The notes under the pieces: model-generated | Database searches by the model: none | Told to the model about the DNA's origin: nothing | The model's input: only the letters and a program-made list of their open reading frames with translations | Shown here: positions 1,766 through 59,452 of the stretch, in pieces | How the letters are laid out: every line of letters begins with the position of its first letter | Numbering within the stretch: the stretch's first letter is position 1 | Translations under genes and position numbers: made by a program | Assembly: GCA_018650085.1 (NCBI GenBank) | Contig: JABIGQ010000038.1 | Span: forward strand, 4,388-68,387 | Reading direction: 5' to 3' | DNA from: Candidatus Magasanikiibacteriota bacterium | GTDB taxonomy: Bacteria > Patescibacteriota > Patescibacteriia > Magasanikbacterales > UBA922 | Length of the DNA stretch: 64,000 nt

Positions 1766-1782
1766 TAAAAAAAATTATTAAA

Positions 1783-1820
1783 AAGAAACACTTCATATAC
1801 TCGAGTGTTTCTTTTTTTTA
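1783..1820 (+). terminator. Rho-independent terminator after secF.
   Basis: Inverted repeat AGAAACACT-N11-AGTGTTTCT followed by a T8 run. Confidence 0.6.
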
Positions 1821-1858
1821 TGGTATAATATAAGTATATAATTTATAGAAAAGTATTT

Positions 1859-2020: not shown

Positions 2021-2021
2021 T

Positions 2022-3455: not shown

Positions 3456-3478
3456 TTATAGAAAAAAGAGTAAAATAA

Positions 3479-3553
3479 AAAACCGTCCCCTTGTCTCCTC
3501 TTTTATTTGTCGATAATTTCAACAAATAAAAGCGAAGTGGGACGGTTTTTTTA
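3479..3553. terminator. Bidirectional terminator with nested hairpins between two convergent genes.
   Basis: Outer stem AAAAACCGTCCC...GGGACGGTTTTTTT. Inner stem CTTTTATTTGT...ACAAATAAAAG. A-run on the left and T-run on the right. Confidence 0.55.
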
Positions 3554-3633
3554 TTCCATCAGATACCACTTGCAGATTGCCATATATAGAAGACAATCTT
3601 TTTTACCACAGGATGTGGATTTATATATAGTTT

Positions 3634-4302: not shown

Positions 4303-4462
4303 GATGGACTCCTATGCTTCACATGTTTGTAAAGCTATAGAGGTGGAATGTTCAGTATGCAGAAACAAGAGTTGATATCTGCATTGAACTAAAGTAAGCT
4401 AGCATAAAAAAAGTATTCTGTCAAGTATGGTGTATGGGTTTTTCATGATAGAGAACGTTATA

Positions 4463-4491
4463 TTGACAGTATCTTAAATAAATGCTATAGT
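4463..4491 (+). promoter_or_regulatory. Sigma70-like promoter: TTGACA-N17-TATAGT.
   Basis: Exact -35 hexamer, 17-bp spacer, 5/6 -10. Lies ~100 nt upstream of the small ORF at 4590. A 7-bp leader hairpin (GAAGCAC...GTGCTTC, 4545-4574) lies between. Confidence 0.4.
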
Positions 4492-4589
4492 TTTTAGTTG
4501 AAAAATAATATGTATTCCAGTATCTATAGATGTAAAAAATATATATATTGAAGCACATATTAACAGCCAGTGCTTCAGGAGGAAAGTGT

Positions 4590-4736
4590 ATGTATCCTGT
4601 AGTAGAGGATGAGTCTGTTTTGGAGAAAGTCGCTCTTTGGATGGGGGCAGTATTGCTGCTCATGGTAGTAGTCCTCGCGGGATACTATTGTGGTGGGTAT
4701 AACGGTCTCTGGACCGTGCACCCATTTTTTCTGTAG
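4590..4736 (+). CDS. Small predicted membrane peptide, 48 aa.
   Basis: ATG is preceded by GGAGG at a 7-nt spacing. Hydrophobic core 'ALWMGAVLLLMVVVLAGYY'. Own promoter upstream. GC-rich relative to its surroundings. Confidence 0.3.
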   Translation: MYPVVEDESVLEKVALWMGAVLLLMVVVLAGYYCGGYNGLWTVHPFFL

Positions 4737-4854
4737 AGAGAAGAATCTCTCTGCAGTCCAACGAACGCCGTCTTTGTACAAGTCAATTTTGACATGTATG
4801 GGGGCGGTTATTTTTATATATACATATTGCTAAAATAGTAAATTTTACGTATAC

Positions 4855-5901
4855 TTGAGCTATATGAAATCTATTGCACTCATAAACAATTTATATGGTA
4901 AGTATGCGAGAGGTGGGGCTGAGAGAGTCGTAGAGCAATTAGCAAGGCATTATCAGGCCGGAGGGAAGCATGTAATTGTCATAAGTTTAGGAAAGAAAAA
5001 TGAACGGATAGAACATGATGGTGTTGTGGTATATTATTATAAAGCACCGCAGATTTTTTCATATGTAGATTTAGACAAGCACGGATTGTTTTTAAAAATG
5101 ATCTGGCATGCTTTTAATATATGTAATATTTTTTCTGCTCTGGGTATTGTAAACATATTAAAAAAAGAAAAAGTATCACTAGTCCATACACATAATCTTA
5201 TGGGATTAGGATTGTGCTTGCCTGTAGCTTTTAGAAAAAGAAATATAAAGCATATACATACTGTGCATGATGTACAGTTGGTGGAGCCTAGTGGAGTATT
5301 GTCATGGGATCATAAAAAAGATAATTTGTTTCAAGTCTGTTATAAGTATATTACTAAATTATTGATGGGGAGTCCTGCAGAAGTAATATTTCCATCGCAG
5401 TATATGTCTGATTTTTATACATCACGTGGTTTTTTTAAGAAGAGTAAAAAAAAGGTATTGTCTATACATAATTCTTACAAACAAAAAACTTCTAAAAAGA
5501 TACAAACATATGTATTTGTAGGAACATTATCAGAGCATAAGGGGGCGCATCTTTTACCAGAGATATGGAATGATATTGATGATAAAACATTAATAATAGT
5601 AGGAGATGGAGAACTTCGAGAGCGTATTTCCTCATGGGCAAAAAAACAAGATACTGTTACGTATCTTGGGAGGTTAGAAAAAGTGGCATTAGAAGAAATT
5701 TATAAAAAAGCGGATTGTCTTATTTTCCCTTCAATTTGTATAGAAAACAGACCAAATGTTTTAGAGGAAGCATTGGCACATGGGCTTTCTATTATTGCTT
5801 CAGATACTGGTGGTGTGCGGGAGGTATTGGCAGAAGTGTCTCAGGCTCATTTAGTTACTCCGGGAGTTGTGGAGGAGTTTAGGGAGCAGATATTATCTTA
5901 G
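4855..5901 (+). CDS. Glycosyltransferase, family 4 (GT-B fold).
   Basis: N-terminal 'GGAERVV' motif. C-terminal 'ADCLIFPS...ENRPNVLEEALAHGLSIIASDTGGVREV' with the E-X7-E signature of GT4. The start may instead be the ATG at 4864. Confidence 0.75.
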   Translation: MSYMKSIALINNLYGKYARGGAERVVEQLARHYQAGGKHVIVISLGKKNERIEHDGVVVYYYKAPQIFSYVDLDKHGLFLKMIWHAFNICNIFSALGIVNILKKEKVSLVHTHNLMGLGLCLPVAFRKRNIKHIHTVHDVQLVEPSGVLSWDHKKDNLFQVCYKYITKLLMGSPAEVIFPSQYMSDFYTSRGFFKKSKKKVLSIHNSYKQKTSKKIQTYVFVGTLSEHKGAHLLPEIWNDIDDKTLIIVGDGELRERISSWAKKQDTVTYLGRLEKVALEEIYKKADCLIFPSICIENRPNVLEEALAHGLSIIASDTGGVREVLAEVSQAHLVTPGVVEEFREQILS

Positions 5902-6005
5902 ATTGAGATTTGTAATTTCACATTATAATTTTTTTCAAAATAATTCGGGCACATTTTTTTCTCAAATATAGCTTTCTCTTCGCTGTATAAGTATATATAG
6001 GTAAG

Positions 6006-8078
6006 TTATCTTACATACTCATATACCCATACTTCATCTGCGCCAAATGTCCACCATGCATTGGCTTCTTTTTTTGCTTCATCTCGCAGGTATGCTGCTG
6101 GTGACCAGTAGCTGGTGTGGATGAAATATGCTTTATTTACGCCTGCATAATCCATGGCTTGAATCATCCATGCTCTTTTTGGTTCATCATATACCATGTG
6201 TGCAAAGTAGCTGTACATTGGGGCGCCTGTGGGGATAGAATAGAAGTATTGTTCTCCATGTGCTACATTGTGATATTTTAGAAATCCAAATTCTTTCATG
6301 GCTGTTACACCGACCATCTGATTTGTTAATACTATGTAGTCTGGAGTATTATCATTTCTTTCATGAATAAAATGTACGGCTTCTTTATCTGCGTTACGGA
6401 TAGATATCCCTGTATAATATGACAGAGCATTTCTGGTAGGGTAGGTAAAAAACCAAGAGATAGTTAATAATATGACAAGAGAGAAAATAGAAATATATTG
6501 GATAATATGTTTTTGTTTTTTTATGTAGTGATATAAATATATCATTGTACTGGCAAATGCTGGAAGTAAAAATAAATATGCCATCATAAGAAGGCGTTTT
6601 GCATAGTTACCGTATTCATAGTTCGCCATATTTGGGAAACGTATGATAGTAGCAATGATTGCTCCAGAAAAAAAGAGCCCAAAAGATGTCGCAAGAAAAA
6701 ACAAGGATCTCTTTTCTTTTTTTGTATAGAAAAGTCCAACCCCCATTATTGTTAATATGATATATGGGATAAGTGCTTTATAATGATAGAGTAATTGTAA
6801 ATGTCTTGGGGCATTATCAAATAATTCCCAATGTGGTTTTTTGAAAAATGAGATAAAAACATCCAGTTCTTCCCACGGCATAATAACACGAAGTTCGCTA
6901 TGCATATATAGGATAAGCCCCAGTGGCAATGCAATGGCAAGTAGGATGCTGTAGAGAGGGTAGAGGTATGTTTTTGTCTGGTTTTTAAAACGCCACGCTA
7001 GGATAATAATTGCGAGTGGAATACCAGCAATGGCATGAGTAATAAGTGTCATGATGGTAAATAGTCCTATGAGTAGGTCATCTTGTTTTCTATGTGGTTT
7101 ATCCCATATATGCCAGATCCATAATGCAACGAGTGTAGAAAAAAGAAGGGTGAGGTTAAATGGGGTGGTAAAAATAAACCAAGAAAGTGGTACAAGTGTT
7201 AAAAGAATTGTTGCCCAGAGTGCTTTATGTTTGTATCCATATGTGTGCCAGAGAAAGAGAGGAATGTATATACTTGCAAGCAGTGGGACAAGTAGGGTGT
7301 CTATGCTAATAATAGATATATGGCTGAGTGCAGAAATAAATAATACAAGCATGTATTGTCCTAGATAATATGGATTTTTTGGTGAGATCATGCCATGATC
7401 TCTAATATAGGTTTCACTTGCTTGGTGAATCACAGGATCATAGCCATAGCCATTTTTAAATAATATAATGGCAACGGACAGTATGAGTATATAATGAATG
7501 ATGCTTCCAAGGAAAAGAAGCATGGGGTGGGTTTTTTGTTTTAATGCAATAAATAGATAAAGTATGGTAGTTATTGCAAATACGGTAAAGAATTTGGGCC
7601 CTACGAGTGTCCATGGGGAATAGAGTGTTCCTCCATATTGTTTTGTATATAATACGCCTAGGAGAAGGAGACTTCCGAGTATTGGTATTATACCCCAGAT
7701 GAGTTTTTTTAAGTCTAATGTATTGCGTTTTATCTTAGCTTTAGTATTTGATTTTTTATGTATGAGATATATGGATAGTATTGAAATAAGGCATATTATT
7801 CCACTTGCCAAAAAATTACTCCACCCAAAAAACCAGTAAACAGGGGTTGCAATGATTGGGATAGAGAGATATAGTAATAGTGATCCAAAGAGGAATTGAG
7901 GGATTGCAGATTGTTTTGGGATCCATGATTTCCCCCAGATATAACCGTGTGTGAGTGTAAATAGGGAGAATATGAGTATTCCTGCTATTTTTGAGATATT
8001 TGTGTATATACTAAAAAGCGCAAGGATTGTCACAAGTGTGAAAGTGGTGATATACTTGATATGTATGGAGTTTTTCAT
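6006..8078 (-). CDS. Large polytopic membrane protein, more than 12 TM helices plus a ~130-aa C-terminal soluble domain. Possibly a GT-C-type glycosyltransferase; speculative.
   Basis: 690-aa ORF, almost entirely hydrophobic helices with an aromatic-rich C-terminal domain. Divergent from a similar gene at 8254. Adjacent to a GT4 gene. Confidence 0.55.
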   Translation of the reverse strand: MKNSIHIKYITTFTLVTILALFSIYTNISKIAGILIFSLFTLTHGYIWGKSWIPKQSAIPQFLFGSLLLYLSIPIIATPVYWFFGWSNFLASGIICLISILSIYLIHKKSNTKAKIKRNTLDLKKLIWGIIPILGSLLLLGVLYTKQYGGTLYSPWTLVGPKFFTVFAITTILYLFIALKQKTHPMLLFLGSIIHYILILSVAIILFKNGYGYDPVIHQASETYIRDHGMISPKNPYYLGQYMLVLFISALSHISIISIDTLLVPLLASIYIPLFLWHTYGYKHKALWATILLTLVPLSWFIFTTPFNLTLLFSTLVALWIWHIWDKPHRKQDDLLIGLFTIMTLITHAIAGIPLAIIILAWRFKNQTKTYLYPLYSILLAIALPLGLILYMHSELRVIMPWEELDVFISFFKKPHWELFDNAPRHLQLLYHYKALIPYIILTIMGVGLFYTKKEKRSLFFLATSFGLFFSGAIIATIIRFPNMANYEYGNYAKRLLMMAYLFLLPAFASTMIYLYHYIKKQKHIIQYISIFSLVILLTISWFFTYPTRNALSYYTGISIRNADKEAVHFIHERNDNTPDYIVLTNQMVGVTAMKEFGFLKYHNVAHGEQYFYSIPTGAPMYSYFAHMVYDEPKRAWMIQAMDYAGVNKAYFIHTSYWSPAAYLRDEAKKEANAWWTFGADEVWVYEYVR

Positions 8079-8132: not shown

Positions 8133-8236
8133 TTTGTATAGTATATCTATTTTTTCACTGCATGATTGCTTCTTAAAACGTTCCTTTTGCGGAACTAAAC
8201 ATATCCGTTCAAAAATAAATATACTGCACTCTCTTT
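8133..8236 (+). repeat. Copy 1 of the ~100-bp TIR-flanked repeat family. Its left end is degenerate.
   Basis: Core 'TATCTATTTTTTCACTGCATGATTGCTTCTTAAAACGTTCCTTTTGCGGAACTAAACATATCCGTTCAAAAATAAATATA' shared with the copies at 24467, 56983 and 59344. Ends 18 bp before the ATG at 8254. Confidence 0.7.
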
Positions 8237-8253
8237 AATAGATATTATATATT

Positions 8254-10479
8254 ATGAAAAAACAAATAGTACAATCGAGTATTGCTTTTATATTTTTGTT
8301 AGGGATATTGGGGAATATGTATATTTGGCAGATGCCTTTTGTTGGCACGTTGTTATTTTTTTGTTTTTCTGCAACTATTGCGTGGATGTGGCAGCCGGGT
8401 GTTGCAAAAATATTTCATGTGAAGGTGCATAGTGCTATGACGCATTTGCTTGGGTGGAGTGTCGTATTATTTGGGTATGCGGTATTGTCTAGTGTTTCTG
8501 TAATGATTCATAGGCTGACGATGCATCATGTTTCAGGTATATTGTTGTGTAGTGTATTATTGCCTTTTATTTTTTCTTTTTTATATCATAAAGTAAAGCG
8601 GAAACGGGATAAAGGTGTTCGGACGTTGGTAAGTACAGAGTCTTGTAGTCGTCATGAAATATTTGGTGGAAGTTCGTGGTTTATGGTGGTCTATCTGTTA
8701 TTATGGGCTGCTGGTGTGGCATTGCTTGTTGGATCTACCAGTGATGTGGTCTTGCGTTCTCCATGGCAGGCAATTCATCATGTGTTCCCATATGTATTTT
8801 TCTTTGCCAGTATTGTATTTGGAATTATATTATTTTCTAGGTATAAAGTTCCTGTTATTTTATTTACTCTTATTTTACATACGTTTTTATTACATTTGTT
8901 TGTGCCATTATCCCATGTATTGCCATGGGGAGGAGATGTGTGGCGGCATATTGCTATGGAAGAGCGAGTGGTGGCTTCTGAGTATATACATCCCGTGCTT
9001 ATAGGAGATACTGTAGAGATGATCCCAATGTTTGGTGTGCAAATTCCACGATTGTTTTCTCATCCCCAAAAGCTTGGATATAGTATGCTGTGGGGTATGA
9101 CTTCTTTTATTCAATATATCACAGGGCTATCTTTTGAAATAATACATATTTGTTTGGTGCCATTGTTATTTTCTTTTATGGTGCCTGTACTTTTATTTCG
9201 TTTAGGCGCGGTACTTTTTGGGACTACCAGAAGGGGATTATGGTTGGCAGCTGCTTCTCTTATATTATATCCTATCCAAGCTGCGGGTTCTCTTACTGTT
9301 CCTGTAAGCCTTGGGTTTGTATTTTTCTTATTTGTCCTTACTATTTGGGCAACGTATTTACGTTATGGTTATAGATATATGCGGTGGATGTGGTGGGTGA
9401 CTACGGCATTACTTTTTTTTGGGTATTCTCTTTATGCAGTACTTGGATTATTACTTCTTGTATATACATATGCTTATCGTTATATAAAAGGTATCTCATC
9501 TCTGTGGATAAAAAGAAGTGTGCTTGGGATAGGAATGGGTTTGTCTATCTTTGTTATTCCTGTATTTGAATGGTTAGCGGGGACGTGGCAGATGGGTGGT
9601 GTTGATATCTTAAGAGAAATAAAACAAATACTCGGACAATGGAGTGGATTGTATTATATTTCTCAAATTCGTGATCACGATATTTCAAGTGGAAATATGT
9701 TGATAAATCAAACACCTCTATATGCATATGTGGAGACAGTATTTACGGTATGGCGTTGGTGGATATTGGGAGTATTGTCTGGTGTGTATGCCAGCGTATT
9801 TGTGGCTATGTGGTTTATTATAAAAGATAAAATAGATGATAGATGGCGTATATTATTGTGGTTTGGAATTTCACTTTTTGGTGGGTATCTCATAGGGTGG
9901 CATCTTGGTGGTGGAGATAGGGCTATTATTCGCCGTCTGGATTTGGTGTTGGGCTTATTGATTGTATTATTTGCTTGTTATGGATGGGTAAATATAATGG
10001 ATATGTTATCTATTCGTCTCTCTCGTGTGTGGTATAAAGTTGTGGTAATGGTGAGTGTATTATTTGTTATATTGTTAGGGGTGCAAACATATATAAGTGG
10101 GCCAGATGAATATGTATTACATAAGGATAGTTATGATGCTGCGCGTATTGTGGCTACAGAATTGGAATGGGAAAATCCGCAATGTATTATTGCAGACACA
10201 TGGGAATTACTTGCGTTAGAGCGATTTACTCATGCGTATATTATAGGTGGTGGATTTCCTATGGTACATGGATACGGTCAGCCAGAGCGTGTGCGTCTAT
10301 ATCATCAGTTAACAAGTGATTTTGTAGGAGATGAATTGGAAGTGGCGCATGAGCTTACTGGTGATGATAGTTGTGTGTTTATAACATCTGTGAATAATGT
10401 AGACGTTGAGGGTGTTACTGCATTGTTTGGGAGTGATCCAGAGCGGGTTGGTGGAGTATTTATTTGGAGAGAGGATTAA
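8254..10479 (+). CDS. Large polytopic membrane protein with the same architecture as the 6006..8078 gene. Possibly a paralogous GT-C-like transferase; speculative.
   Basis: 741-aa ORF with many TM helices and a C-terminal soluble domain whose layout parallels the divergent neighbour ('ADTWELLALERF..YIIGGG' vs 'DYIVLTNQMVGVTAMKEFG'). Confidence 0.55.
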   Translation: MKKQIVQSSIAFIFLLGILGNMYIWQMPFVGTLLFFCFSATIAWMWQPGVAKIFHVKVHSAMTHLLGWSVVLFGYAVLSSVSVMIHRLTMHHVSGILLCSVLLPFIFSFLYHKVKRKRDKGVRTLVSTESCSRHEIFGGSSWFMVVYLLLWAAGVALLVGSTSDVVLRSPWQAIHHVFPYVFFFASIVFGIILFSRYKVPVILFTLILHTFLLHLFVPLSHVLPWGGDVWRHIAMEERVVASEYIHPVLIGDTVEMIPMFGVQIPRLFSHPQKLGYSMLWGMTSFIQYITGLSFEIIHICLVPLLFSFMVPVLLFRLGAVLFGTTRRGLWLAAASLILYPIQAAGSLTVPVSLGFVFFLFVLTIWATYLRYGYRYMRWMWWVTTALLFFGYSLYAVLGLLLLVYTYAYRYIKGISSLWIKRSVLGIGMGLSIFVIPVFEWLAGTWQMGGVDILREIKQILGQWSGLYYISQIRDHDISSGNMLINQTPLYAYVETVFTVWRWWILGVLSGVYASVFVAMWFIIKDKIDDRWRILLWFGISLFGGYLIGWHLGGGDRAIIRRLDLVLGLLIVLFACYGWVNIMDMLSIRLSRVWYKVVVMVSVLFVILLGVQTYISGPDEYVLHKDSYDAARIVATELEWENPQCIIADTWELLALERFTHAYIIGGGFPMVHGYGQPERVRLYHQLTSDFVGDELEVAHELTGDDSCVFITSVNNVDVEGVTALFGSDPERVGGVFIWRED

Positions 10480-24466: not shown

Positions 24467-24569
24467 TGTTCGTACAATATATCTATTTTTTCACTGCATG
24501 ATTGCTTCTTAAAACGCTCCTTTTACGATCTGAAGCATCTCCGTTCAAAAATAAATATATTGTACTCTC
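24467..24569 (+). repeat. Copy 2 of the ~100-bp TIR-flanked repeat family.
   Basis: TIRs 'TCGTACAATATAT...ATATATTGTACTC' and the shared core. The internal hairpin region is degenerate in this copy. Ends 51 bp before the iscS ATG. Confidence 0.75.
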
Positions 24570-40132: not shown

Positions 40133-41764
40133 ATGATCAAAACAAGATTTGCACCATCACCAACAGGATTTTTACATGTAGGGAGTTTACGTACAGCACT
40201 TTATGCGTATTTGTATGCAAAAAAACACAATGGAAGCTTTATTTTGCGAGTAGAAGATACAGATAGAGCGAGACTAGTAGAAGGAAGTGTAGAAGCTATG
40301 GTTCGCTCACTTGCTTGGGGTGGAATTGATATTGATGAAGGTGTGAAATTTGATGATGCTGGAGATATTACACAAGTGGGGGAGAATGGGCCATATATTC
40401 AGTCAGAAAGGCTAGATATTTATAAAAAGTACATGGATGAACTCTTGGAAAAAGAACATGCATATCATTGTTTTTGTACAAGAGAGCGATTGGATGATTT
40501 GCGAAAAATGCAAGAGACAAATAAAATGCCTACAGGGTATGATGGACATTGCAGAGAAATGAGCAAAGAAGAAGTTCAAGTAAAGATTGATGCAGGGGAG
40601 AAATATGTTATTCGCCTAAAGATGCCAAAGGAAGGGGTAACGAGTTTTGATGATTTAGTTCGTGGAAAAGTTGAATTTAAAAATGAATTGGTGGATGATC
40701 AAGTACTTATGAAGTCAGATGGTTTCCCTACGTATCATTTTGCAGTAGTGGTGGATGATCACCTTATGGAAATTACGCATGTTATCCGTGGCGAGGAATG
40801 GATTTCTTCTACTCCTAAGCATATTATGCTTTATGAAATGTTTGGTTGGGATAAACCACAATTTGCACATCTTTCTCTTCTCGTAAATGAGAAAAAAGCA
40901 AAATTATCTAAACGTCATGGAGATGTAGCGGTAGAGGATTTCAAAGAAAAAGGATATTTGCCAGAAGCTCTTATAAATTTTATTTCTTTTCTTGGTTGGA
41001 ATCCCGGTGACGAGAGAGAGATATTTAGTTTGAAAGAATTAGAAAAAGAATTTGATTTTGATAAAGTTGCAAAGTCTGCGGCAGTGTTTAATCGTGAGAA
41101 ATTGGCTTGGTATAATAATGAATGGATGAGAAAGTTAGATAAAGATGAGCTTGCAAAAAAATATAGAGATTATCTTGTCAAACCACGAAAAGATATACAT
41201 ATTAATGAATTAACAGATGAAGAGAGTCAAGATCAATATGCTACAGAAGGAAACTCAATATATTATACTTGGTCTGATAAAGAAAATGCTTTACAAGTTA
41301 CTGAAAGTATAGAATCTGAAAATAATAGAAAAATAACAGAAAGTAAATATATAAATTTAGATAAACTTAAAAAGATTTTAGAAATGGGAATGGATAGGGA
41401 TACTTATTTTATGGCTATTGAAATGAATAGTAGATATTTATTTACTACTCAATTAAAATATGAGCCAGAGCTTCTGGTGTGGAAAAAAAGTACTCGGGAA
41501 GGTTCAAAGGAAAAATTAGAATTATTACATGCATTTTTGTCAAATATTTCTGAGGATGATTGGAATGAAAAGTATTTGGAAGAAAATCTCATCGCTTGGA
41601 TAAAGGAAAATGAATATGGTGTGGGAGATGTGCTTTGGCCAATGCGGACTGCTTTGTCTGGACGGAAGAATTCTCCGGGGCCGTTTGAGATTGCGGGGGT
41701 GCTTGGGAAGGGTGTTGTGCTTGAGAGGGTGTTGAGGGGGAGTGATAACATTAAAATAATTTGA
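40133..41764 (+). CDS. gltX: Glutamyl-tRNA synthetase, with an extended C-terminal region.
   Basis: HIGH motif 'PSPTGFLHVGSLRTALYAY', 'RVEDTDRAR', KMSKS motif 'KLSKRHG'. 543 aa. Confidence 0.9.
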   Translation: MIKTRFAPSPTGFLHVGSLRTALYAYLYAKKHNGSFILRVEDTDRARLVEGSVEAMVRSLAWGGIDIDEGVKFDDAGDITQVGENGPYIQSERLDIYKKYMDELLEKEHAYHCFCTRERLDDLRKMQETNKMPTGYDGHCREMSKEEVQVKIDAGEKYVIRLKMPKEGVTSFDDLVRGKVEFKNELVDDQVLMKSDGFPTYHFAVVVDDHLMEITHVIRGEEWISSTPKHIMLYEMFGWDKPQFAHLSLLVNEKKAKLSKRHGDVAVEDFKEKGYLPEALINFISFLGWNPGDEREIFSLKELEKEFDFDKVAKSAAVFNREKLAWYNNEWMRKLDKDELAKKYRDYLVKPRKDIHINELTDEESQDQYATEGNSIYYTWSDKENALQVTESIESENNRKITESKYINLDKLKKILEMGMDRDTYFMAIEMNSRYLFTTQLKYEPELLVWKKSTREGSKEKLELLHAFLSNISEDDWNEKYLEENLIAWIKENEYGVGDVLWPMRTALSGRKNSPGPFEIAGVLGKGVVLERVLRGSDNIKII

Positions 41765-41765
41765 T

Positions 41766-42080
41766 ATGAAATTTATAAAAAGTATTTTAGGATATTTTAT
41801 TGAAATTATACTAGCTATAATAATTTTATATGTCATTAAAGACATTAATTTATTTTTATTATATGCTTTTATCATTTATTTAATTAGTTCAGAAAAAAGA
41901 ATTGATTATATTAGAAAGTTAATTCGTGTATATCAGGTGGGAAATGAAGTAAAATTATTATCTATTATAAAAAAGTTAAAAATAACAGATGAAGAAATAG
42001 AAAATATTTTTGAAAATACTGTAACTGAAGAAGAAAAAAATAATTTAGATAAGGAGTTTAATGATTTGAAAAAGGAATAA
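41766..42080 (+). CDS. Small membrane protein, hypothetical.
   Basis: ORF with an N-terminal TM pair and a charged C-terminus. Confidence 0.35.
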   Translation: MKFIKSILGYFIEIILAIIILYVIKDINLFLLYAFIIYLISSEKRIDYIRKLIRVYQVGNEVKLLSIIKKLKITDEEIENIFENTVTEEEKNNLDKEFNDLKKE

Positions 42081-42096
42081 GATTTTTTTGGTTATT

Positions 42097-42123
42097 GTAG
42101 AGACGCAGCAATGCTGCGTCTAC
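42097..42123. repeat. GC-rich palindromic hairpin GTAGAGACGCAGCA-A-TGCTGCGTCTAC, REP/IS200-end-like.
   Basis: Near-perfect 13-bp stem, 66 bp upstream of the HUH transposase ATG. A second copy lies inside the gene at 42588-42610. Confidence 0.55.
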
Positions 42124-42191
42124 ATCAACAAACAATTCTATGTATAAACAAATAATATCATCTTTATCTAACCCATAAATCACAAAACCCC

Positions 42192-42866
42192 ATGCAACCC
42201 ACCACCCAAAACTTCCTATATAAAAACAAATACAAAACAAACACAATTCGCCTAAAAAATTGGGATTATTCAAAAGACGCATTTTATTTTATAACCATAT
42301 GTACAAAAAATAAACAAAATTTATTTGGAAAAATTGAAAATGATGAAATGGTTTTAAATTCATTTGGGGAAATAATAAAAAAATATTGGTTTGAAATCCC
42401 AAAACATTTTGAAAACGTACGATTGGATGAATTTATTGTCATGCCAAATCATGTACATGGAATTTTGATAATTGATGATGGAAATGGTGGTGGAAATGGT
42501 GGTGGAAATGGTGGTGGAAATGGTGGTGGAAATGGTGGTGGAAATGGTGGTGGAAATGGTGGTGGAACAAAGAACAATGCAAAGATGGAGACGCAGCAGT
42601 GCTGCGTCTCTACAAACAAAATAGACGAAAAGATTCAAAAATCAAATACATTTTATAAATTGAAATCTGGTTCATTACCTGTTATAATTCGTTCATATAA
42701 ATCAATTTGTACAAAAACAATAAATAAATTTCAAGATAATATTCGTTTTGCCTGGCAACCAAGATTTTATGAAAGAATCATTAGAAATCAAAAAGAATTT
42801 TTTAATATAAAATATTATATAATTAATAATCCCGCTAATTGGAGGGATGATAAAAATTTTAAATAA
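42192..42866 (+). CDS. IS200/RAYT-family HUH (Y1) tyrosine transposase, with an in-frame ~60-aa insertion.
   Basis: 'FYFITICTKN', HUH motif 'VMPNHVHGILII', 'SLPVIIRSYKSICTKTINK', catalytic-Tyr region 'FAWQPRFYERIIRNQKEFFNIKYYIINNPANW'. Between the HUH motif and the 'IIRSYKS' helix lie (GNGG)x7 and a hairpin-encoded segment. Confidence 0.6.
   Translation: MQPTTQNFLYKNKYKTNTIRLKNWDYSKDAFYFITICTKNKQNLFGKIENDEMVLNSFGEIIKKYWFEIPKHFENVRLDEFIVMPNHVHGILIIDDGNGGGNGGGNGGGNGGGNGGGNGGGNGGGTKNNAKMETQQCCVSTNKIDEKIQKSNTFYKLKSGSLPVIIRSYKSICTKTINKFQDNIRFAWQPRFYERIIRNQKEFFNIKYYIINNPANWRDDKNFK
42481..42564 (+). repeat. Perfect tandem repeat (GAAATGGTGGTG)x7 inside the transposase ORF.
   Basis: Seven identical 12-bp units encoding GNGG repeats. 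In-frame. Confidence 0.9.
42588..42610. repeat. Second copy of the palindromic hairpin GAGACGCAGCA-G-TGCTGCGTCTC, inside the transposase ORF.
   Basis: Perfect 11-bp stem immediately after the tandem repeat. Confidence 0.55.
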
Positions 42867-42874
42867 AAAACAAT

Positions 42875-43567
42875 ATGAAACTCAAACAAATAAAATCGAC
42901 ATACTTCAAAGAAAACCAAAAGTATGATTTTCTTTTTCCTATTGGTTCTACTGAACAACATGGAGCATTTATTCCATTTGGGACAGATACATATATTACA
43001 GATTATTTAGTTGATAAAATTTCTAAAGAATTTCCAGAATTAATTGTTTTACCAACTTTAGAAGTTTCAAGATCAGAAGAACATAGAGGTTTTTATGGTA
43101 GTCTTTGGATAACAGAAGAAACATTAAAAGCTGTAATGTTTGATATTTGTAATTCACTTAAAGATAGGGCAAGAAATATCTTTATTACATCTTTTCATGC
43201 CAATGGTTCATATATTGAAAGTTTTATTAAAGAAAATAATTTTGATGGTGTAAATATTGTTCATCTTGAAATAGAACATGAAGAAGATGATAAGGTAATA
43301 GAGCAAATTCTTGGAGGAGAAATGGATAATCATGCTGGAAATTCAGAAATATCAAATATGCTCGTAATTGATGAAAAATTAGTAAAAGTTCCTTCCGAGA
43401 ACGAGCCTAAAACACAAGTAGACAATCCTTTTGAAACAGATAAATTGATAGAGAAGTGTCCAAACGGAATAGCAGATAATCATCCAAAATGGATAGTAGA
43501 TAAAGAAATTGGGAAGAAAATTCTTGATATTTATGTTGCTAGGATGATTGAGAATTTGAATATATGA
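42875..43567 (+). CDS. Creatininase-family amidohydrolase.
   Basis: 'FLFPIGSTEQHGAFIPFGTDTYI' matches the creatininase-fold metal-binding signature (GSxEQHG...D). Confidence 0.65.
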   Translation: MKLKQIKSTYFKENQKYDFLFPIGSTEQHGAFIPFGTDTYITDYLVDKISKEFPELIVLPTLEVSRSEEHRGFYGSLWITEETLKAVMFDICNSLKDRARNIFITSFHANGSYIESFIKENNFDGVNIVHLEIEHEEDDKVIEQILGGEMDNHAGNSEISNMLVIDEKLVKVPSENEPKTQVDNPFETDKLIEKCPNGIADNHPKWIVDKEIGKKILDIYVARMIENLNI

Positions 43568-43860
43568 CAAACCTACAAAAAATCCAAAAACAAATATACC
43601 AAAATAAAATAGATAAAGGATTTAATATAACAGATATTCCTTTACAATTTTGTCTTACACAAGGGGAACTTGCAGAGGCTTTTGAAGCATATAGAAAAAA
43701 ACTTCCAAGTGTAGGTGAAGAATTGTCAGATGTTGCAATATATTTGTTTGGATTAGCTGAAATTCTAGGAGTAGATTTGGAGGAAGAGATTTTGAAGAAG
43801 ATGGAAAAGAATTCGAAGAGAGTATATGAAAAGGTGGATGGGGTATTGAAAAGAGTATAA
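43564..43860 (+). CDS. MazG-like nucleotide pyrophosphohydrolase (small all-alpha NTP-PPase).
   Basis: 'GELAEAFEAYRK...GEELSDVAIYLFGLAEILGVDLEEEI' has the EExxE/D metal-binding helices of MazG-type NTP-PPases. Confidence 0.6.
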   Translation: MTNLQKIQKQIYQNKIDKGFNITDIPLQFCLTQGELAEAFEAYRKKLPSVGEELSDVAIYLFGLAEILGVDLEEEILKKMEKNSKRVYEKVDGVLKRV

Positions 43861-43906
43861 TAATTAAAAAACTGTTACCAGTGGTTGCATAAATAAACAA
43901 AAACAT

Positions 43907-44923
43907 ATGACAAAAACCCTTCAACAATTTTCAAATTTCGTTATATTCAAAACATCTACAGGGAAAATAAATATAGATGTATTTTTTCAGGATGACACAC
44001 TTTGGCTCACACAAAAGAAGATTGCAGAGCTTTTTGAAACCACAACTCAAAATATAACATTGCATTTGAAAAATATATTTCAAGAAGGAGAACTTATTAA
44101 AGATTTAACTTGTAAGGAATTCTTACAAGTTCAAAAAGAAGGTAATAGAGAAGTAAAAAGAAAATATAAATACTATAACCTAAAAGCAATCACAGCTGTA
44201 GGATATCGTGTAAATTCTACTCGAGCAACAGAATTTAGAAAATGGGCAAGTGAGATTTTAAATGAGTATATTGTAAAAGGATATGCCATGGATGATGAAC
44301 GCCTTAAAAATATAGAAAATTTTGGTATTGATTATTTTGACGCCATGCTTGAGAGGATTCGAGAAATTCGCATGAGTGAACGGCGTTTGTATCAAAAAAT
44401 TACCGATATTTATGCTCTTTCAGCAGATTATAGTACACAATCAGATATTACAAAACATTTTTTTGCTACTGTACAAAATAAATTGCATTGGGCTATTACA
44501 GGAAAAACAGCAGCAGAAATTATTTATAATGAAGTTGATGCAAAAAAGATTTATATGGGTTTAAAGACATGGAAGAACGCTCCAGATGGTAAAATTTTGA
44601 AAAGTGATGTAACTATTGCAAAAAATTATTTGAATGAAAAACATATTGACGCACTTAATCGTATTGTAAATAGTTATCTTGATATTGCAGAAAATAAAGC
44701 TCGAAATGGTAAGGTTATGAATATGACAGATTGGGATATTTATTTAGAACAATTTTTGGAACTTTCTAATTATCCACTTTTGAAAGATGCTGGAAAAATA
44801 TCTATGTTTGAAGCAAAGTTAAAAGCAGAGTCAGAATATGACGTTTTTCGTGTTGAACAAGACAAAAATTACATTTCAGATTTTGACAAAGAAGTACAAA
44901 AGATGCTTGATGTAAAAGAATAA
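43907..44923 (+). CDS. RhuM-family protein (Virulence_RhuM).
   Basis: 'YYNLKAITAVGYRVNSTRATEFRKWASEILNEYIVKGYAMDDERLKN' closely matches the conserved RhuM core. Recalled from memory, not searched. Confidence 0.55.
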   Translation: MTKTLQQFSNFVIFKTSTGKINIDVFFQDDTLWLTQKKIAELFETTTQNITLHLKNIFQEGELIKDLTCKEFLQVQKEGNREVKRKYKYYNLKAITAVGYRVNSTRATEFRKWASEILNEYIVKGYAMDDERLKNIENFGIDYFDAMLERIREIRMSERRLYQKITDIYALSADYSTQSDITKHFFATVQNKLHWAITGKTAAEIIYNEVDAKKIYMGLKTWKNAPDGKILKSDVTIAKNYLNEKHIDALNRIVNSYLDIAENKARNGKVMNMTDWDIYLEQFLELSNYPLLKDAGKISMFEAKLKAESEYDVFRVEQDKNYISDFDKEVQKMLDVKE

Positions 44924-44944
44924 TATATTAATAGAATAAACCAT

Positions 44945-45490
44945 ATGAAAAAAACATTCACCACAACTCTCTTAATAGCACTTTGTTTTATTACAATAGG
45001 ATGTACAAAAACTGATGTAAAAAATAATACAGAACAAGAAGAAACCGATACAATAGAGATTATCGATGAGGTGGAAGATATGGATGTGAAAGAAACTGAA
45101 ATAAATATAGAAAAAGTAGTATATGATTGGGAAGGAGATTTAGAAGATGTAACAAAAGGAAAAACAATACTTGGAGTAAACACGGAAGGAACCTCATCTG
45201 GATTTGCTCAAGCAGTATTTAATAATACATATACATTGCAAGCGGTATTTGAAGGATTACCAGATCCAGAAGGAACAGATTTTTATGAAGGATGGATTGT
45301 GCGGAGAGAAGGGAGTTTTAATGTTATTAGTACAGGAAAAGCAAGCAAAATTGATGGGGTGTATAAAAATGTCTATGAATCTGAGAAAGATCTAAGCGAT
45401 CATACATTTTATGTGCTTACTATTGAACCAGATGATGGAGATCCCGCACCTGCAGAGCATATATTAGAAGGAGTATTGATGAGAAATTAA
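44945..45490 (+). CDS. Lipoprotein, paralog set A.
   Basis: Signal peptide 'MKKTFTTTLLIALCFITIGC' with lipobox ITIGC. Acidic mature domain. Confidence 0.6.
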   Translation: MKKTFTTTLLIALCFITIGCTKTDVKNNTEQEETDTIEIIDEVEDMDVKETEINIEKVVYDWEGDLEDVTKGKTILGVNTEGTSSGFAQAVFNNTYTLQAVFEGLPDPEGTDFYEGWIVRREGSFNVISTGKASKIDGVYKNVYESEKDLSDHTFYVLTIEPDDGDPAPAEHILEGVLMRN

Positions 45491-45491
45491 T

Positions 45492-46160
45492 TTGTTTAAA
45501 AATATGTCACAAAAAAACACACAAGAATACTGGGACACTGTGTATAAAAAAGTAGACACCGTACTTGGGCCAACATTATTTGTAAAAAAAGTGAGTACAT
45601 ATTTCAGTCCACCAAAACATATTTTGGATGTGTGTTGTGGAGATGGAAAAGATTCTCTTTATTTTGCTACACTTGGATATACTGTTACTGCGACAGACAT
45701 TTCTGCTGTGGCACTTTTTGATAATTTACAAAAAAACAATTTAGATATAGAACGTATACAAAGTGATGTTCGTGAACTTGTTCTTGATGCAAATATATAT
45801 GATGTTGTATACTCTTGTTTAGGATTACATTATTTTTCATGGGAGGAAACAAAAAAGATTTTTGCAAACCTTGTACAATCGCTTAAACTAGATGGATATA
45901 TTTGTGTCAGAGTCAAATCTATATATGATGCTGATTATGGAAAAGGAGAAAAACAAGAGGGTAATTTGTTTATTTCAAACAGAAAACAAAGATATTTTTT
46001 TTCTAAAGAAGAAATGGAGAAGTTATTTTTTGAAAATAATATAGAAATAATATGTTCGGAATATGTAGAAGATGTCTTGAAACGATTTGATAAAACAGAA
46101 TATACTGCAAATTTTGTAGATATTATAGGAAAAAAATTAATGAATAATACATTATATTAA
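45492..46160 (+). CDS. Class I SAM-dependent methyltransferase.
   Basis: Motif I 'ILDVCCGDGKDSLYFATLGYTVTATDIS'. Motif II 'YDVVYSCLGLHYF'. Confidence 0.7.
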   Translation: MFKNMSQKNTQEYWDTVYKKVDTVLGPTLFVKKVSTYFSPPKHILDVCCGDGKDSLYFATLGYTVTATDISAVALFDNLQKNNLDIERIQSDVRELVLDANIYDVVYSCLGLHYFSWEETKKIFANLVQSLKLDGYICVRVKSIYDADYGKGEKQEGNLFISNRKQRYFFSKEEMEKLFFENNIEIICSEYVEDVLKRFDKTEYTANFVDIIGKKLMNNTLY

Positions 46161-46173
46161 TATAAAAGAACAT

Positions 46174-46746
46174 ATGAAAAAAACACTTACAACAACTCTT
46201 CTCATCGCACTTTGTTTCATTACCATAGGATGTACAAAAACAGATGTAGAAAATGACTTAGAAAAAGAACGAGGAAATCAAGAACTTTTGACCCAAGAAG
46301 AATTTGATGCGCTTCGAGCAGATGGAGATATTGAATTTGAAGAAGATTATATTCGAGAACTTGATGATGCAACAGAAGAAAGACGTGTAAATGATGCTTT
46401 AGAACTTATTGATGATATAGAAGGATCAAAAGCAGATAAACTTGCTGGAAAAGGCGCTGTAGGAAGTTGTGAGGCTATTGCAGAAAGTTCAACATGTGTT
46501 GAATATCATGGTTCATTTTGGACAAAAGAATCAGCACGATTGAATTGTAGCGATACAGGCAAGTTTTCTACAGAATCATGTCCTACTGATCATGCAGGTG
46601 GATGTAATACTGGTGTGGGAACTATGGCAGATATGGTTTCTTGGATGTATCTTCGTGGTGATGGAGGCATAACAGCAGAATCACTGAAATATGCAAAAAT
46701 GGTTTGTGATGCAACTATGGCGTCACAGTGGATTGTGAGTAAATAA
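46174..46746 (+). CDS. Cys-rich lipoprotein, paralog set A.
   Basis: Signal peptide 'MKKTLTTTLLIALCFITIGC', near-identical to that of 44945. The mature domain carries 8 Cys. Confidence 0.6.
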   Translation: MKKTLTTTLLIALCFITIGCTKTDVENDLEKERGNQELLTQEEFDALRADGDIEFEEDYIRELDDATEERRVNDALELIDDIEGSKADKLAGKGAVGSCEAIAESSTCVEYHGSFWTKESARLNCSDTGKFSTESCPTDHAGGCNTGVGTMADMVSWMYLRGDGGITAESLKYAKMVCDATMASQWIVSK

Positions 46747-46786
46747 AAAAAAGCACGGTATTTGTAGATGCTTTTTTTATCCTCTG

Positions 46787-47032
46787 TTATCCTCGAATTG
46801 TTATAATTTTTATAGAGTCAATATCTGTAAAACGGATAAATCCGTCTATGTCTTCTATTTGGAAGCCATCATCCCTTAGGAATGATATATCATCCAGATT
46901 ATTTAACAGGTATGGATGTTTTATCCCTTCTCCATTTTCGTGGAGTGTGATTTTAAGTTGTTCTGCGCCGTATCGTAGCTCTTCTAAAAGAGCTTTGAGT
47001 CTACTAAGAGTAATCTTTCTTTTTCTTGCCAT
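46787..47032 (-). CDS. Hypothetical small protein, 81 aa.
   Basis: ORF convergent with the lipoprotein gene. No motif. Confidence 0.35.
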   Translation of the reverse strand: MARKRKITLSRLKALLEELRYGAEQLKITLHENGEGIKHPYLLNNLDDISFLRDDGFQIEDIDGFIRFTDIDSIKIITIRG

Positions 47033-47126
47033 GAGTGTTCTCCTTGAGTTGTGCTGTAGTTCAAATACCGTGCATTGCTAAAAGATCATAGCATAGATAT
47101 TTAATTTATTCAATTATATAGATTAT

Positions 47127-47155
47127 ATTGACGAAATGACAGTATACTAGTATAA
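47127..47155 (+). promoter_or_regulatory. Sigma70-like promoter TTGACG-N17-TATAAT driving tRNA-Thr.
   Basis: 5/6 -35, 17-bp spacer, perfect -10. ~95 nt upstream of the tRNA. Confidence 0.45.
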
Positions 47156-47253
47156 TATTGTCTATAAGATTATACGCCATCATAGCTTCCTACCATATAC
47201 TCACTATCGTTCGTATTGGGCGGACAAGCTGTATGTGCTAAAATAATTTACAC

Positions 47254-47326
47254 GCCATCATAGCTCAGTTGGTAGAGCGCAGCCATGGTAAGGCTGAGGT
47301 CTCCAGTTCAATCCTGGATGATGGCT
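47254..47326 (+). tRNA. tRNA-Thr, anticodon GGU.
   Basis: Acceptor GCCATCA/TGATGGC. D-arm GCTC-AGTTGGTA-GAGC. Anticodon stem CAGCC/GGCTG with loop ATGGTAA. T-arm TCCAG-TTCAATC-CTGGA. Discriminator T. No CCA encoded. Followed by a terminator at 47335-47367 (AACAGTTT..AGCTGTT plus T7). Confidence 0.9.
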
Positions 47327-47518
47327 CATTAGTAAAAAACAGTTTCAGAAGAGCTGTTTTTTTATTATCATAGACATACCATACTTGACAAAAATCTTAT
47401 TTTGTTCTAGGCTGATTTACTCATTAACCTAAGTAGACCAAGTCGAGCCTATATCATATAGGTGGTTTACACCTCTCTGGCAGGGAGGTAATTCGAAGAG
47501 CCTGGGAGGGCTTATATC

Positions 47519-48367
47519 ATGGCAGAACTGATACTTAGTGCTAAAGAGAGGACATTGCTTACAGCAATGCAGGACATGGGTGGGTATGCATCAACTTTGG
47601 ATTTGAAAGGAATCCTTGGTATAGAAAGTTCTTCAAATATAGATGCAGTCAGAAGAATAAAGGCAGTCATAGAAAGGATTGGGGAAGCATGTGAGGATGT
47701 GGGAATGGAGAACCCACTTCACGCTTGTTGGTTTCAGGAAGAAGGGGAACGCCATAGGGGGTATAGACTGGCAACTCCTTTGGATAAATTGCTCGTTGCA
47801 GGAGTACTTCCTAGACCATCACAGCGATTCATCAGGGAGCTTCAACGGCGTCAAGCTGTTGGAATCCACTGGGTCATGAAGACCTTTGGGTTTAGCAGAA
47901 AGATAGCTGTTGGTTCAGTCATTGAGCCCATAGTCAGGATTGCTGGTGAACTTGGAATCACACCTTTTGACATAGGTGTGCTGAAGGTGGATGGGGATCC
48001 GCACTGTAGAGTGTGGTTTTTGCACGGTTCCGAAAATCCAGATCCAAAGTGGATCCAGGGTCCTAAGTACTCTCCTCGTCACCCAAAAAAGAAAAAGCCA
48101 TCTCGTCCTCGGAGTACTTCGCAACCTGTAGTGATACGCCGACCAAGCAGGCAGCGTACCAAAGGTAGTGAGTTGAGAGGAAGGATCTTTGATGCGCTTA
48201 AGAGTAGCGGCACTCTTACCATCTTGGAGATTTTTGATCTAACTGGATTAGATGGAAATGAAGTTGTTGGACTACTCAAGCAAGCTAAACCTCCAGAGAG
48301 CGGCGATTTTCGCTGGGCTACTGGTCCTATGGGGCATGAGTACTTACGCTGGATTGGGCCTAGGTAA
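47519..48367 (+). CDS. Hypothetical protein encoded in a compositionally atypical (GC-rich) island. Basic Pro/Arg/Lys-rich linker; possible wHTH.
   Basis: 282-aa ORF in a ~1-kb segment much more GC-rich than its flanks. GGGAGGG lies upstream of the ATG. No family motif. GC-rich DNA yields long ORFs by chance, so coding status is not certain. Confidence 0.45.
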   Translation: MAELILSAKERTLLTAMQDMGGYASTLDLKGILGIESSSNIDAVRRIKAVIERIGEACEDVGMENPLHACWFQEEGERHRGYRLATPLDKLLVAGVLPRPSQRFIRELQRRQAVGIHWVMKTFGFSRKIAVGSVIEPIVRIAGELGITPFDIGVLKVDGDPHCRVWFLHGSENPDPKWIQGPKYSPRHPKKKKPSRPRSTSQPVVIRRPSRQRTKGSELRGRIFDALKSSGTLTILEIFDLTGLDGNEVVGLLKQAKPPESGDFRWATGPMGHEYLRWIGPR

Positions 48368-48449
48368 GTAAAAAATTATTTTGTTTTAGTATAGGAGATT
48401 TTAATGGTCCAATACGCTATAGCGTATGGAACATTACGAAAGTGACTTT

Positions 48450-48489
48450 CAGCGGTTTTTCATTAGGAGATCCCGCTGTATTTTTTTTT
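48450..48489 (+). terminator. Rho-independent terminator after the GC-rich island.
   Basis: CAGCGG-N16-CCGCTG followed by T9. Confidence 0.55.
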
Positions 48490-48500
48490 GGAAATTATTC

Positions 48501-48529
48501 TTGACAAAACAGGTATATTCGTGTATAAT
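48501..48529 (+). promoter_or_regulatory. Consensus sigma70 promoter TTGACA-N17-TATAAT for typA.
   Basis: Both hexamers perfect, 17-bp spacer. ~58 nt upstream of the typA ATG at 48588. Confidence 0.6.
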
Positions 48530-48587
48530 ACTGCATCGAACACTCTCTCAAGTGGGGGAGCGTTTTTTATTTAAATCAATCTCTTGT

Positions 48588-56982: not shown

Positions 56983-57085
56983 TGTTCGTACAATATATCT
57001 ATTTTTTCTCTGCATGATTGCTTCTTAAAACGTTTCTGTTTCGTGACTAAACATATCCGTTCAAAAATAAATATATTGTACTCTC
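56983..57085 (+). repeat. Copy 3 of the ~100-bp TIR-flanked repeat family.
   Basis: TTCGTACAATATATCTATTTTTTCTCTGCATGATTGCTTCTTAAAACG...CTAAACATATCCGTTCAAAAATAAATATATTGTACTC. Ends 68 bp before the pilM ATG. Confidence 0.75.
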
Positions 57086-59343: not shown

Positions 59344-59452
59344 TTCGTACAATATATTTATTTTTTCACTGCATGATTGCTTCTTGAAACGTTCCTTTTA
59401 CGGAACTAAACATATCCGTTCAAAAACAAATATATTGTACTCATCGTAATAA
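59344..59452 (+). repeat. Copy 4 of the ~100-bp TIR-flanked repeat family.
   Basis: TTCGTACAATATATTTATTTTTTCACTGCATGATTGCTTCTTGAAACGTTCCTTTTACGGAACTAAACATATCCGTTCAAAAACAAATATATTGTACTC. Ends 12 bp before the pilD ATG. Confidence 0.75.

Follow-up and report, generated by a model that had tools for sequence, protein, structure and literature searches.

A probable moron-like single-gene cassette encoding a predicted multi-winged-helix protein between tRNA-Thr and typA of a Candidatus Magasanikiibacteriota bacterium

Introduction

In a stretch of 64,000 nucleotides from a Candidatus Magasanikiibacteriota bacterium (assembly GCA_018650085.1, contig JABIGQ010000038.1; hereafter the window), the tRNA-Thr(GGU) gene and typA are separated by about 1 kb of strikingly GC-rich DNA with one ORF of 282 aa. 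This raises the question of what the island is and how it came to lie there. An initial annotation, made from the letters of the window, had offered two answers, namely the remnant of an acquired element beside a tRNA gene, or an unrecognised ncRNA whose ORF is accidental. Here, we describe the composition, the boundaries, the relatives and the predicted product of this locus.

Results

The island carries a real gene with foreign-looking codon usage

The GC content was determined in 200-nt windows. Between 47400 and 48300 it amounts to 0.44-0.50, compared to 0.26-0.40 in the flanks on both sides, confirming the GC-rich island of ~1 kb seen before. The background of the 64 kb is 34.6% GC and, the island excepted, the next-richest 1-kb bins reach at most 0.401. 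The ORF at 47519-48367 has a GC content of 0.471 and a GC3 of 0.399, while the 47 other long ORFs in the window, which served as the comparison set, average 0.347 and 0.233 (z 3.7 and 3.6, respectively). About half of the GC excess of the ORF is explained by amino acid content (host codons would give a GC of 0.419): R and P occur at about twice the host frequency, and G and W are also raised. The other half is codon choice. The GC3 expected from the amino acids of the ORF and host codon usage is 0.238 ± 0.024, corresponding to a z of 6.8; no other ORF of the window deviates as strongly in codon usage. Its codon usage is foreign-looking rather than typical of this genome. Similar GC3 values are reached by some other host genes, namely mraY in contig L083 of a related genome (0.373) and the window ORFs 3634-4302 and 6006-8078.

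The gene was present with the same flanks in assemblies of three independent samples, and the island is therefore not a chimeric or assembly artefact. Among these assemblies a single nucleotide differed over 1260 nt, leading to an R/W change in a basic linker of the protein.

The ORF is a real gene, because it has protein homologs, a codon-type substitution pattern and a Shine-Dalgarno sequence. An exhaustive HMMER scan of 1.84 billion representative proteins revealed P0002 (E 6e-48), which is 46% identical over residues 65-282, together with four weaker matches that aligned to residues ~95-200. The gene of the window and that of P0002 are 55%, 67% and 31% identical at codon positions 1, 2 and 3, as expected for a protein under selection. 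A good Shine-Dalgarno sequence, GGGAGG, is read 9-10 nt upstream of the ATG, and the calculated chance of a stop-free frame of 282 codons at this composition is ~3e-7 per frame start.

The gene lies in a promoter-to-terminator unit

The features of the locus are collected in Table 1. The promoters given earlier for tRNA-Thr(GGU) and typA are both present, and the claimed terminators and palindromes fold better than shuffled sequences. A strict terminator scan missed the hairpins at 47330-47367, 48409-48429 and 48450-48489, because G-C pairs are scarce in them or the loop is long. Likewise, the cassette promoter was missed by a promoter scan because only 3/6 positions of its -10 hexamer match. 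The described copy of the tRNA 5' end does exist in the tRNA leader, a few bases away from where it had been placed; it pairs with 47248-47265. Since the sister genome has it as well, it is ancestral and neither a scar of the island nor an att site.

Table 1. Features of the tRNA-Thr/typA interval (window positions).
Feature	Position	Strand	Evidence and remarks
tRNA-Thr promoter, TTGACG-N17-TATAAT	47128-47156	+	11/12 match; kept in sister L003; outside cassette
Pseudo-copy of tRNA-Thr 5' end, in tRNA leader	47170-47187	+	17/18 identical; kept in L003 5526-5541
tRNA-Thr(GGU), left neighbour of cassette	47254-47327	+	ARAGORN, Rfam; 100% identical in L003
A/U-flanked hairpin, probable tRNA terminator	47330-47367	+	-10.9 kcal/mol, z -3.7
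Putative cassette promoter, TTGACA-N17-TAGGCT	47386-47414	+	Sister equivalent TTGACA-N17-TAGTAT; from conservation
Leader hairpin P1, outer stem GTAGACC/GGTTTAC, inner CCTATAT-CAT-ATATAGG	47433-47470	+	Fold of both copies
Leader hairpin P2, CCTCTC...GGGAGG	47471-47489	+	Stem kept; loop varies in length and sequence
Leader hairpin P3, contains Shine-Dalgarno GGGAGG (47504-47509)	47498-47513	+	Folds; read from sequence
282-aa ORF, predicted triple winged-helix/HTH protein, unannotated family	47519-48367	+	Homologs, predicted model
N-terminal three-helix HTH-like unit, residues 8-60	47540-47698	+	Model pLDDT 77-87, mainly two sequences
Central winged-helix module, residues 95-180	47801-48058	+	pLDDT 85-95; part common to Myxococcota proteins
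Disordered basic linker, residues 181-213	48059-48157	+	12 K+R, 0 D+E; only strain polymorphism (R/W)
C-terminal winged helix, residues 214-282	48158-48364	+	Model H-b-H-H-b-b
Palindrome CCAATACGCTATAGCGTATGG, 3' of stop codon	48409-48429	+	-12.4 kcal/mol, z -3.7; not kept in sister copy
Cassette terminator, CAGCGG...CCGCTG + T9, right edge of insert	48450-48489	+	-16.3 kcal/mol, z -2.7
typA promoter, TTGACA-N17-TATAAT	48501-48529	+	12/12 match; homology with L003 resumes here

Housekeeping genes neighbour the unit (typA, chorismate mutase, NUDIX, uvrC and dus). Upstream, small unannotated or accessory genes are found (RhuM family, MazG-like, methyltransferase, lipoproteins).

Two sister genomes carry the gene in different slots

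All relatives of TypA belong to Patescibacteria/CPR, and the SecA of the window genome carries the NCBI label Candidatus Magasanikbacteria. The closest available genome is the MAG GCA_018823045.1, whose TypA is 89% identical. In its locus L003 the tRNA-Thr gene is conserved together with the promoter and leader sequences of both tRNA-Thr and typA; homology with the window stops at the hairpin 47330-47367. The spacer between the two genes measures 351 nt there and has no similarity to the island, so that this relative carries something other than the same gene at the same place. In other relatives the slot holds nothing, a transporter or an ABC system.

The P0002 gene is located on another contig (L083) of the same MAG, between hpf and secA. 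Similarity between the two copies begins at TACTTGACA in the cassette -35 region, which marks the left edge of the shared unit, and extends from the -35 hexamer (TACTTGACAAA; window 47382) through the stop codon. Further 3' the two copies are unrelated (50% identity), with a separate terminator hairpin in each, that of the sister at L083 10819-10857. Both units lie 3' of the terminator of the upstream gene and 5' of the downstream promoter, co-oriented with their neighbours. A contig recovered via SecA (L115) is 100% identical to window positions 1-6445 and extends the window genome upstream. Here, hpf and secA are separated by a spacer of 130 nt without a cassette. The pattern is reciprocal: the window genome is filled at tRNA-Thr/typA and empty at hpf/secA, and the sister MAG has the cassette at hpf/secA and unrelated debris at tRNA-Thr/typA. 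Since the gene lies in another intergenic slot in each of the two genomes and the slot of the other is empty or otherwise filled, this comparison shows it to be accessory. No further copy or paralog was detected in 80 related typA loci, the window or the sister loci.

The coding sequences of the two copies are 54% and the proteins 43% identical, compared to 78-82% for housekeeping coding sequences and 74-89% for housekeeping proteins of the same two genomes. For the cassette pair, the excess identity at four-fold sites of conserved residues is 0.01 (n = 60); by this noisy measure, typA, secA, secD and secF have 0.15-0.20, murB 0.07 and hpf -0.04. This weakly suggests that the cassette copies diverged before their hosts, as xenologs or paralogs. 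The sister gene has the same GC3 anomaly (z 5.7). Because synonymous sites are saturated and both copies keep a high GC3, a single recent transfer followed by amelioration fits poorly, and the elevated GC3 is not simply the un-ameliorated trace of such an event. Either a GC-richer gene pool would host the circulation of the cassette, or its composition would be selected.

These data also bear on an ancestral, vertically inherited family, with paralogs at both slots or one rearrangement, loss of one copy in each lineage, and a composition that reflects functional constraint. The reciprocal loss of two old paralogs would lead to the same slot pattern, and the composition anomaly is indeed common to both copies despite saturated synonymous sites. 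In addition, the leader upstream of the gene is about as well conserved (71-79%) as orthologous housekeeping DNA, as if it had split with the hosts, the share of the GC excess due to amino acids is about half, and no mobility signature was found. Vertical descent attributes the oddity in GC and codons to an R/P/G/W-rich protein and to mRNA structure and not to foreign origin. We nevertheless consider it unlikely. Neither supposed site of loss retains a cassette remnant (the 130-nt hpf-secA spacer; unrelated debris in L003), the protein is far less conserved than housekeeping proteins, and GC3 lies 6-7 SD over expectation. Moreover, outside the two lineages the gene occurs neither in the other 80 relatives nor among 1.8 billion representative proteins.

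tRNA-targeted integration of the cassette is not supported

The ORF list and Pfam annotation contained no integrase or recombinase within ~6 kb of the island, and no phage gene was found among its neighbours. The insert is not bounded by a direct repeat of the tRNA 3' end. A flank repeat (47391-47410 and 48370-48389; 17/20, p ~0.04 uncorrected) was considered as an att site or target-site duplication and rejected, as it is unrelated to the tRNA and the copy in the sister genome does not show it. Neither cassette contains or adjoins iterons or tandem repeats, and there were no relatives of the protein in INPHARED phages, PLSDB plasmids or IMG/VR. Relocation of the cassette is read from two genomes only, since neither mobility machinery nor a junction signature was found.

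A decayed tRNA-targeting integrative element (island or prophage), which lost its integrase and att sites and kept one cargo gene, would account for the atypical composition and for the location adjoining the tRNA 3' end. The variability of the tRNA-Thr/typA slot across relatives would fit as well, and the upstream RhuM-family/MazG-like region, with 28-29% GC, also looks accessory. Such an origin is highly improbable given the missing integrase, phage and plasmid genes nearby, the missing copy of the tRNA 3' end downstream, the lack of homologs in phages, plasmids or IMG/VR, and the clean promoter-to-terminator structure of the insert. Furthermore, there is no tRNA within 10 kb of the sister cassette. 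The adjacency to tRNA-Thr looks incidental, because the sister copy sits at hpf/secA with no tRNA nearby. Thus, of the acquired element first proposed, the accessory nature, the foreign composition and the different placement in sisters hold, but integration targeted to the tRNA does not.

The gene product is a predicted multi-winged-helix protein

A word-seeded protein search retrieved the 282-aa protein itself as the sole match. Neither for this protein nor for P0002 was a Pfam or NCBIfam family found at E ≤ 1, and PHROGs, PADLOC and PDB sequence searches with the 282-aa protein gave no match, in line with the earlier statement that the ORF has no recognisable family. The best PDB sequence matches were marginal (E 0.43-0.72), that of the profile being the winged-helix protein F-112 of SSV1 (E 0.72). 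A profile of the module at residues ~95-200 brought 11 further clusters, mostly Myxococcota. In total, ~15 distant relatives with one or two modules each were obtained, all 'hypothetical' and none with a Pfam domain; a sub-threshold HTH_DeoR match (E 0.007) occurred in the relative P0004 only. The relatives share the signature LPxxSxRF...GGIxEPIxR...G.R.W.WPG, together with K/A/P-rich or RPGVRVRKR tails. By these searches the family is unannotated and new, and appears to be shared by two Magasanikbacteria lineages and Myxococcota. The literature searches made here brought up nothing relevant.

Structure prediction by AlphaFold without an alignment reached a pLDDT of 38. With a family alignment of 16 sequences, AF2 gave a mean pLDDT of 76.7, with 85-95 at residues 100-170; few sequences underlie this alignment, with ~2 for the N- and C-terminal domains, and pTM is 0.44. 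In the AF2 model the winged-helix topology H1-b1-H2-H3-b2-b3 is found at residues 99-167 and 214-279, and MAFFT aligned the C-terminal winged helix with module 2 of two-module homologs. The model thus shows a winged-helix fold as the predicted structure of the protein. Foldseek matches were generic winged-helix proteins, with RepE at rank 14 (E 0.09).

The only structural matches are tandem winged-helix proteins (ScpB, RepE, TFE/TFIIE-alpha, ESCRT-II, Nse1, MarR-type), which likewise repeat H-b-H-H-b-b domains in one chain. At the sequence level no relation to them was detected, and the cassette protein has no Pfam domain and its own LPxxSxRF...GGIxEPIxR...W.WPG motif. No scpA or smc partner genes lie near the cassette. 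The neighbourhoods of the Myxococcota homologs had no conserved partner and the homologs are stand-alone chromosomal genes; PHA-related genes adjoin P0004, which was not seen at other homolog loci. Linker-histone-like nucleoid-associated proteins combine a winged helix with a K/R/A/P-rich tail. The cassette protein resembles them in its winged helix and basic disordered segment (12 K+R and no D+E in 33 residues), and the likeness extends to the tails of the Myxococcota relatives. To H1/H5 there is no sequence or specific structural match, and the likeness is one of architecture only. From the predicted winged-helix fold and the basic segments we infer a small regulator or a nucleoid-associated protein that would bind nucleic acid, with DNA as the most likely partner.

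A Rep-type initiator (RepE/RepA-like, tandem winged-helix) left behind by an integrated plasmid or replicon is scarcely credible. It would share the tandem architecture, and RepE is among the Foldseek matches; however, neither cassette has iterons or tandem repeats, no Rep family is matched in Pfam or NCBIfam, no plasmid homolog exists in the set searched, the structural matches are generic, and the Myxococcota relatives are single-module chromosomal genes.

A conserved leader precedes the gene

Measured between the -35 hexamer and the start codon, the identity of the two copies is 71%, and it amounts to 79% in the P1-P2 core. Both values lie far above the 54% of the coding sequence; orthologous promoter-leader regions of the same two genomes reach 62-70%. 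Both leaders of ~100 nt fold into the same three hairpins. P1 has in both copies an outer stem GTAGACC/GGTYTAC around a CCTAT...ATAGG hairpin, and GCCTATATCATATAGG (47448-47463), one of the palindromes noted before, is this inner hairpin. The consensus stem of P2 is CCTCTC/GRGAGG in both copies. P3 presents or sequesters the Shine-Dalgarno sequence and is built from different bases in each copy. In the stems, changes are single-sided only (G-U to G-C, G-U to A-U; n = 2), with no double compensatory change. Compared to shuffled sequences the sister leader in L083 has a z of -3.3; the window copy, taken by itself, does not exceed the stability of shuffles (z -0.9). The stems are kept and the loops vary in length and sequence, and therefore an RNA structure fits better than a DNA operator of fixed spacing. 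A cis-regulatory role of the leader is likely from this conservation, and autoregulation by the encoded protein is possible.

A covariance model of the leader, run over 993 kb of related loci, recovered only the two training copies. Searches of metagenomes and IMG/VR with the leader motif ATAGGTGGTNTACACCTC gave 22 and 1 matches, respectively, all of which were rejected as chance matches around the palindrome GGTGTACACC.

GC-rich islands within AT-rich genomes are often structured RNAs, and the first 100 nt at the 5' end do form conserved hairpins. Yet a large structured ncRNA spanning the whole island, in which the ORF would simply result from GC richness, is almost certainly wrong: Rfam, whose families include RNase P, tmRNA, 6S, group I/II introns, OLE, GOLLD and ROOL, had nothing in the island at the gathering threshold, where the tRNA was the sole match, and nothing above 21 bits at E < 10, the fold of the 986-nt island does not stand out from dinucleotide shuffles (z -1.36; 2/20 as stable), and the long stop-free frame, the homologs, the order of conservation (position 2 > 1 > 3) and the confidently predicted protein fold all point to a coding sequence. 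With this, the ncRNA alternative falls for the body of the island, and the ~100-nt leader alone remains a candidate RNA element.

Discussion

Taken as a whole, the locus is probably an autonomous, accessory single-gene winged-helix cassette in the tRNA-Thr/typA gap. The unit would be lodged in the gap between the terminator of tRNA-Thr(GGU) and the promoter of typA. Its own sigma-70-type promoter would drive the ~100-nt leader and the 282-aa gene up to its own terminator, and the last leader hairpin may present or sequester the Shine-Dalgarno sequence. The predicted protein would consist of an N-terminal HTH-like unit, a winged helix, a basic disordered linker of 33 residues and a second winged helix, and would bind nucleic acid, most likely DNA. 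The leader may be the site of post-transcriptional control or autoregulation. As to how the cassette arrived, our guess is that host recombination, for instance after DNA uptake, and not an encoded recombinase, would have placed it.

The comparison with known systems supports a moron-like architecture, since the cassette is an insulated promoter-leader-ORF-terminator unit. A phage moron, in the concept of Hendrix and Juhala, is an autonomous promoter-gene-terminator unit between two phage genes. The cassette is alike in its single co-directional gene with own promoter and terminator, the undisturbed neighbours, the odd composition and a close relative without it at the corresponding position. 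It differs from morons in its chromosomal housekeeping setting without a prophage, in having no match in PHROGs, INPHARED or IMG/VR, and in the conserved structured leader that it carries. With tRNA-linked genomic islands it has the position 3' of a tRNA, the atypical GC and codon usage and the variable slot in common, but it is only ~1.1 kb long, with one gene, no integrase, no att repeat and a homolog away from tRNA. Unlike integron cassettes, it has its own conserved promoter, unrelated 3' regions (50% identity, no shared attC) and no integrase nearby.

A bolder interpretation would take promoter, leader and triple winged-helix gene together as a mobile cassette of a new, minimal kind that does without a recombinase in CPR bacteria. 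The leader and the protein, which may bind it, would then help to maintain or regulate the unit or even to transpose it from one terminator-promoter gap to another, and the persistent ~45% GC would come from circulation in a gene pool other than that of the AT-rich hosts. This we regard as decidedly improbable. The locus is best described as a moron-like, recombinase-less single-gene cassette that probably encodes a member of a new, probably DNA-binding, multi-winged-helix family.

These results do not overturn current understanding, as winged-helix proteins and the insertion of accessory genes are of known kinds. CPR/Patescibacteria genomes are small and half of their genes are without known function, and it is therefore useful to delimit one accessory unit. 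For the present unit the exact boundaries are given, together with an empty site, the second copy at another place in the sister genome, a confidently predicted fold and a conserved leader. In this leader a specific candidate for either a cis-regulatory RNA or an operator is provided, and the two sister genomes document single-gene flux between intergenic slots without a recognisable recombinase.

Repeats and codon-usage outliers

A family of intergenic repeats of ~94 nt, bounded by terminal inverted repeats of 19 nt (GTACAATATATCTATTTTT), is dispersed over the window and occurs once more in a secA-secD spacer of the same genome, on the contig that extends the window upstream (L115). The copies are ~85% identical, and 11 inverted-repeat matches were found vs 0.15 expected by chance. 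Rfam returned no match for the family, which resembles a MITE or REP.

Two further Pfam-less ORFs stand out in codon usage, with GC3 above the value expected from their amino acids and host codon usage. Both are located in the stretch following DUF8128, which lacks synteny to the sister genome (GCA_018823045.1), and may therefore be additional accessory genes.

Coordinates of repeats and genes in the window and on neighbouring or sister contigs
Feature	Location	Strand	Remarks
~94-nt repeat	window 8136-8229, 24472-24565, 56988-57081, 59347-59440		four copies
~94-nt repeat	L115 10791-10890		secA-secD spacer
Half-sites of ~94-nt repeat	near window 4535, 23852, 63150		
Pfam-less ORF	window 3634-4302	(-)	GC3 0.335, z 5.1
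Pfam-less ORF	window 6006-8078	(-)	GC3 0.315, z 5.5
RhuM-family gene	window 43907-44923		Pfam E 4e-108
35-aa ORF	L083 9613-9720	(-)	His/Pro/Arg-rich; preceded by good Shine-Dalgarno

DNA upstream of the sister cassette

On the hpf/secA contig of the sister genome (L083), the GC-rich cassette directly follows a further GC-rich stretch of ~250 nt (9560-9800, GC 0.48-0.49), which contains the 35-aa ORF, is closed by a GC hairpin and has no counterpart at the cassette of the window. This stretch either belongs to the DNA inserted in the sister genome or represents a small gene or RNA of its own.

Leaders of tRNA-Thr and typA

The 5' end of tRNA-Thr is duplicated in its own leader (47170-47187 vs 47248-47265, 17/18 match), 78 nt upstream, or about one tRNA length. 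The sister genome keeps this pseudo-copy on its tRNA-Thr/typA contig (L003 5526-5541), where a GC hairpin comes next. Rather than an att scar, the pseudo-copy probably represents either what is left of a tandem tRNA or a leader element tied to processing.

The typA 5' leader has, downstream of the consensus promoter and ahead of the start codon, a hairpin with a T-run behind it (CTCTCTCAAGTGGGGGAG-CGTTTTTT, 48543-48560). At the equivalent position in L003 (~5958-5975) there is also a hairpin, formed by a different sequence. The element may be attenuator-like.

Apparently variable surroundings of tRNA-Thr

Upstream of tRNA-Thr lies a block of low GC content (~41000-47050, 0.28-0.32). Besides the RhuM-family gene it carries a gene for a methyltransferase, MazG-like and creatininase-family genes and two paralogous lipoproteins with a common N-terminus, MKKT(F/L)TTTLLIALCFITIGCTKTD. 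The block's genes all lack synteny to the sister genome, and contigs assembled from other samples end at ~41-42.5 kb of the window, so that tRNA-Thr appears to be flanked by variable DNA on both sides. We noticed that the sister tRNA-Thr/typA slot (L003 5650-5900) contains short ORF fragments, such as one ending in EAQQYYLPAYMTFAVMDPEEADVLVDSLIWALTDKITLS before a stop and one of 21 aa, MSAKQLEVIDQLIAKLKEYSE. These look like debris from other cargo, which supports the tRNA-Thr/typA gap as a recurrent landing site.
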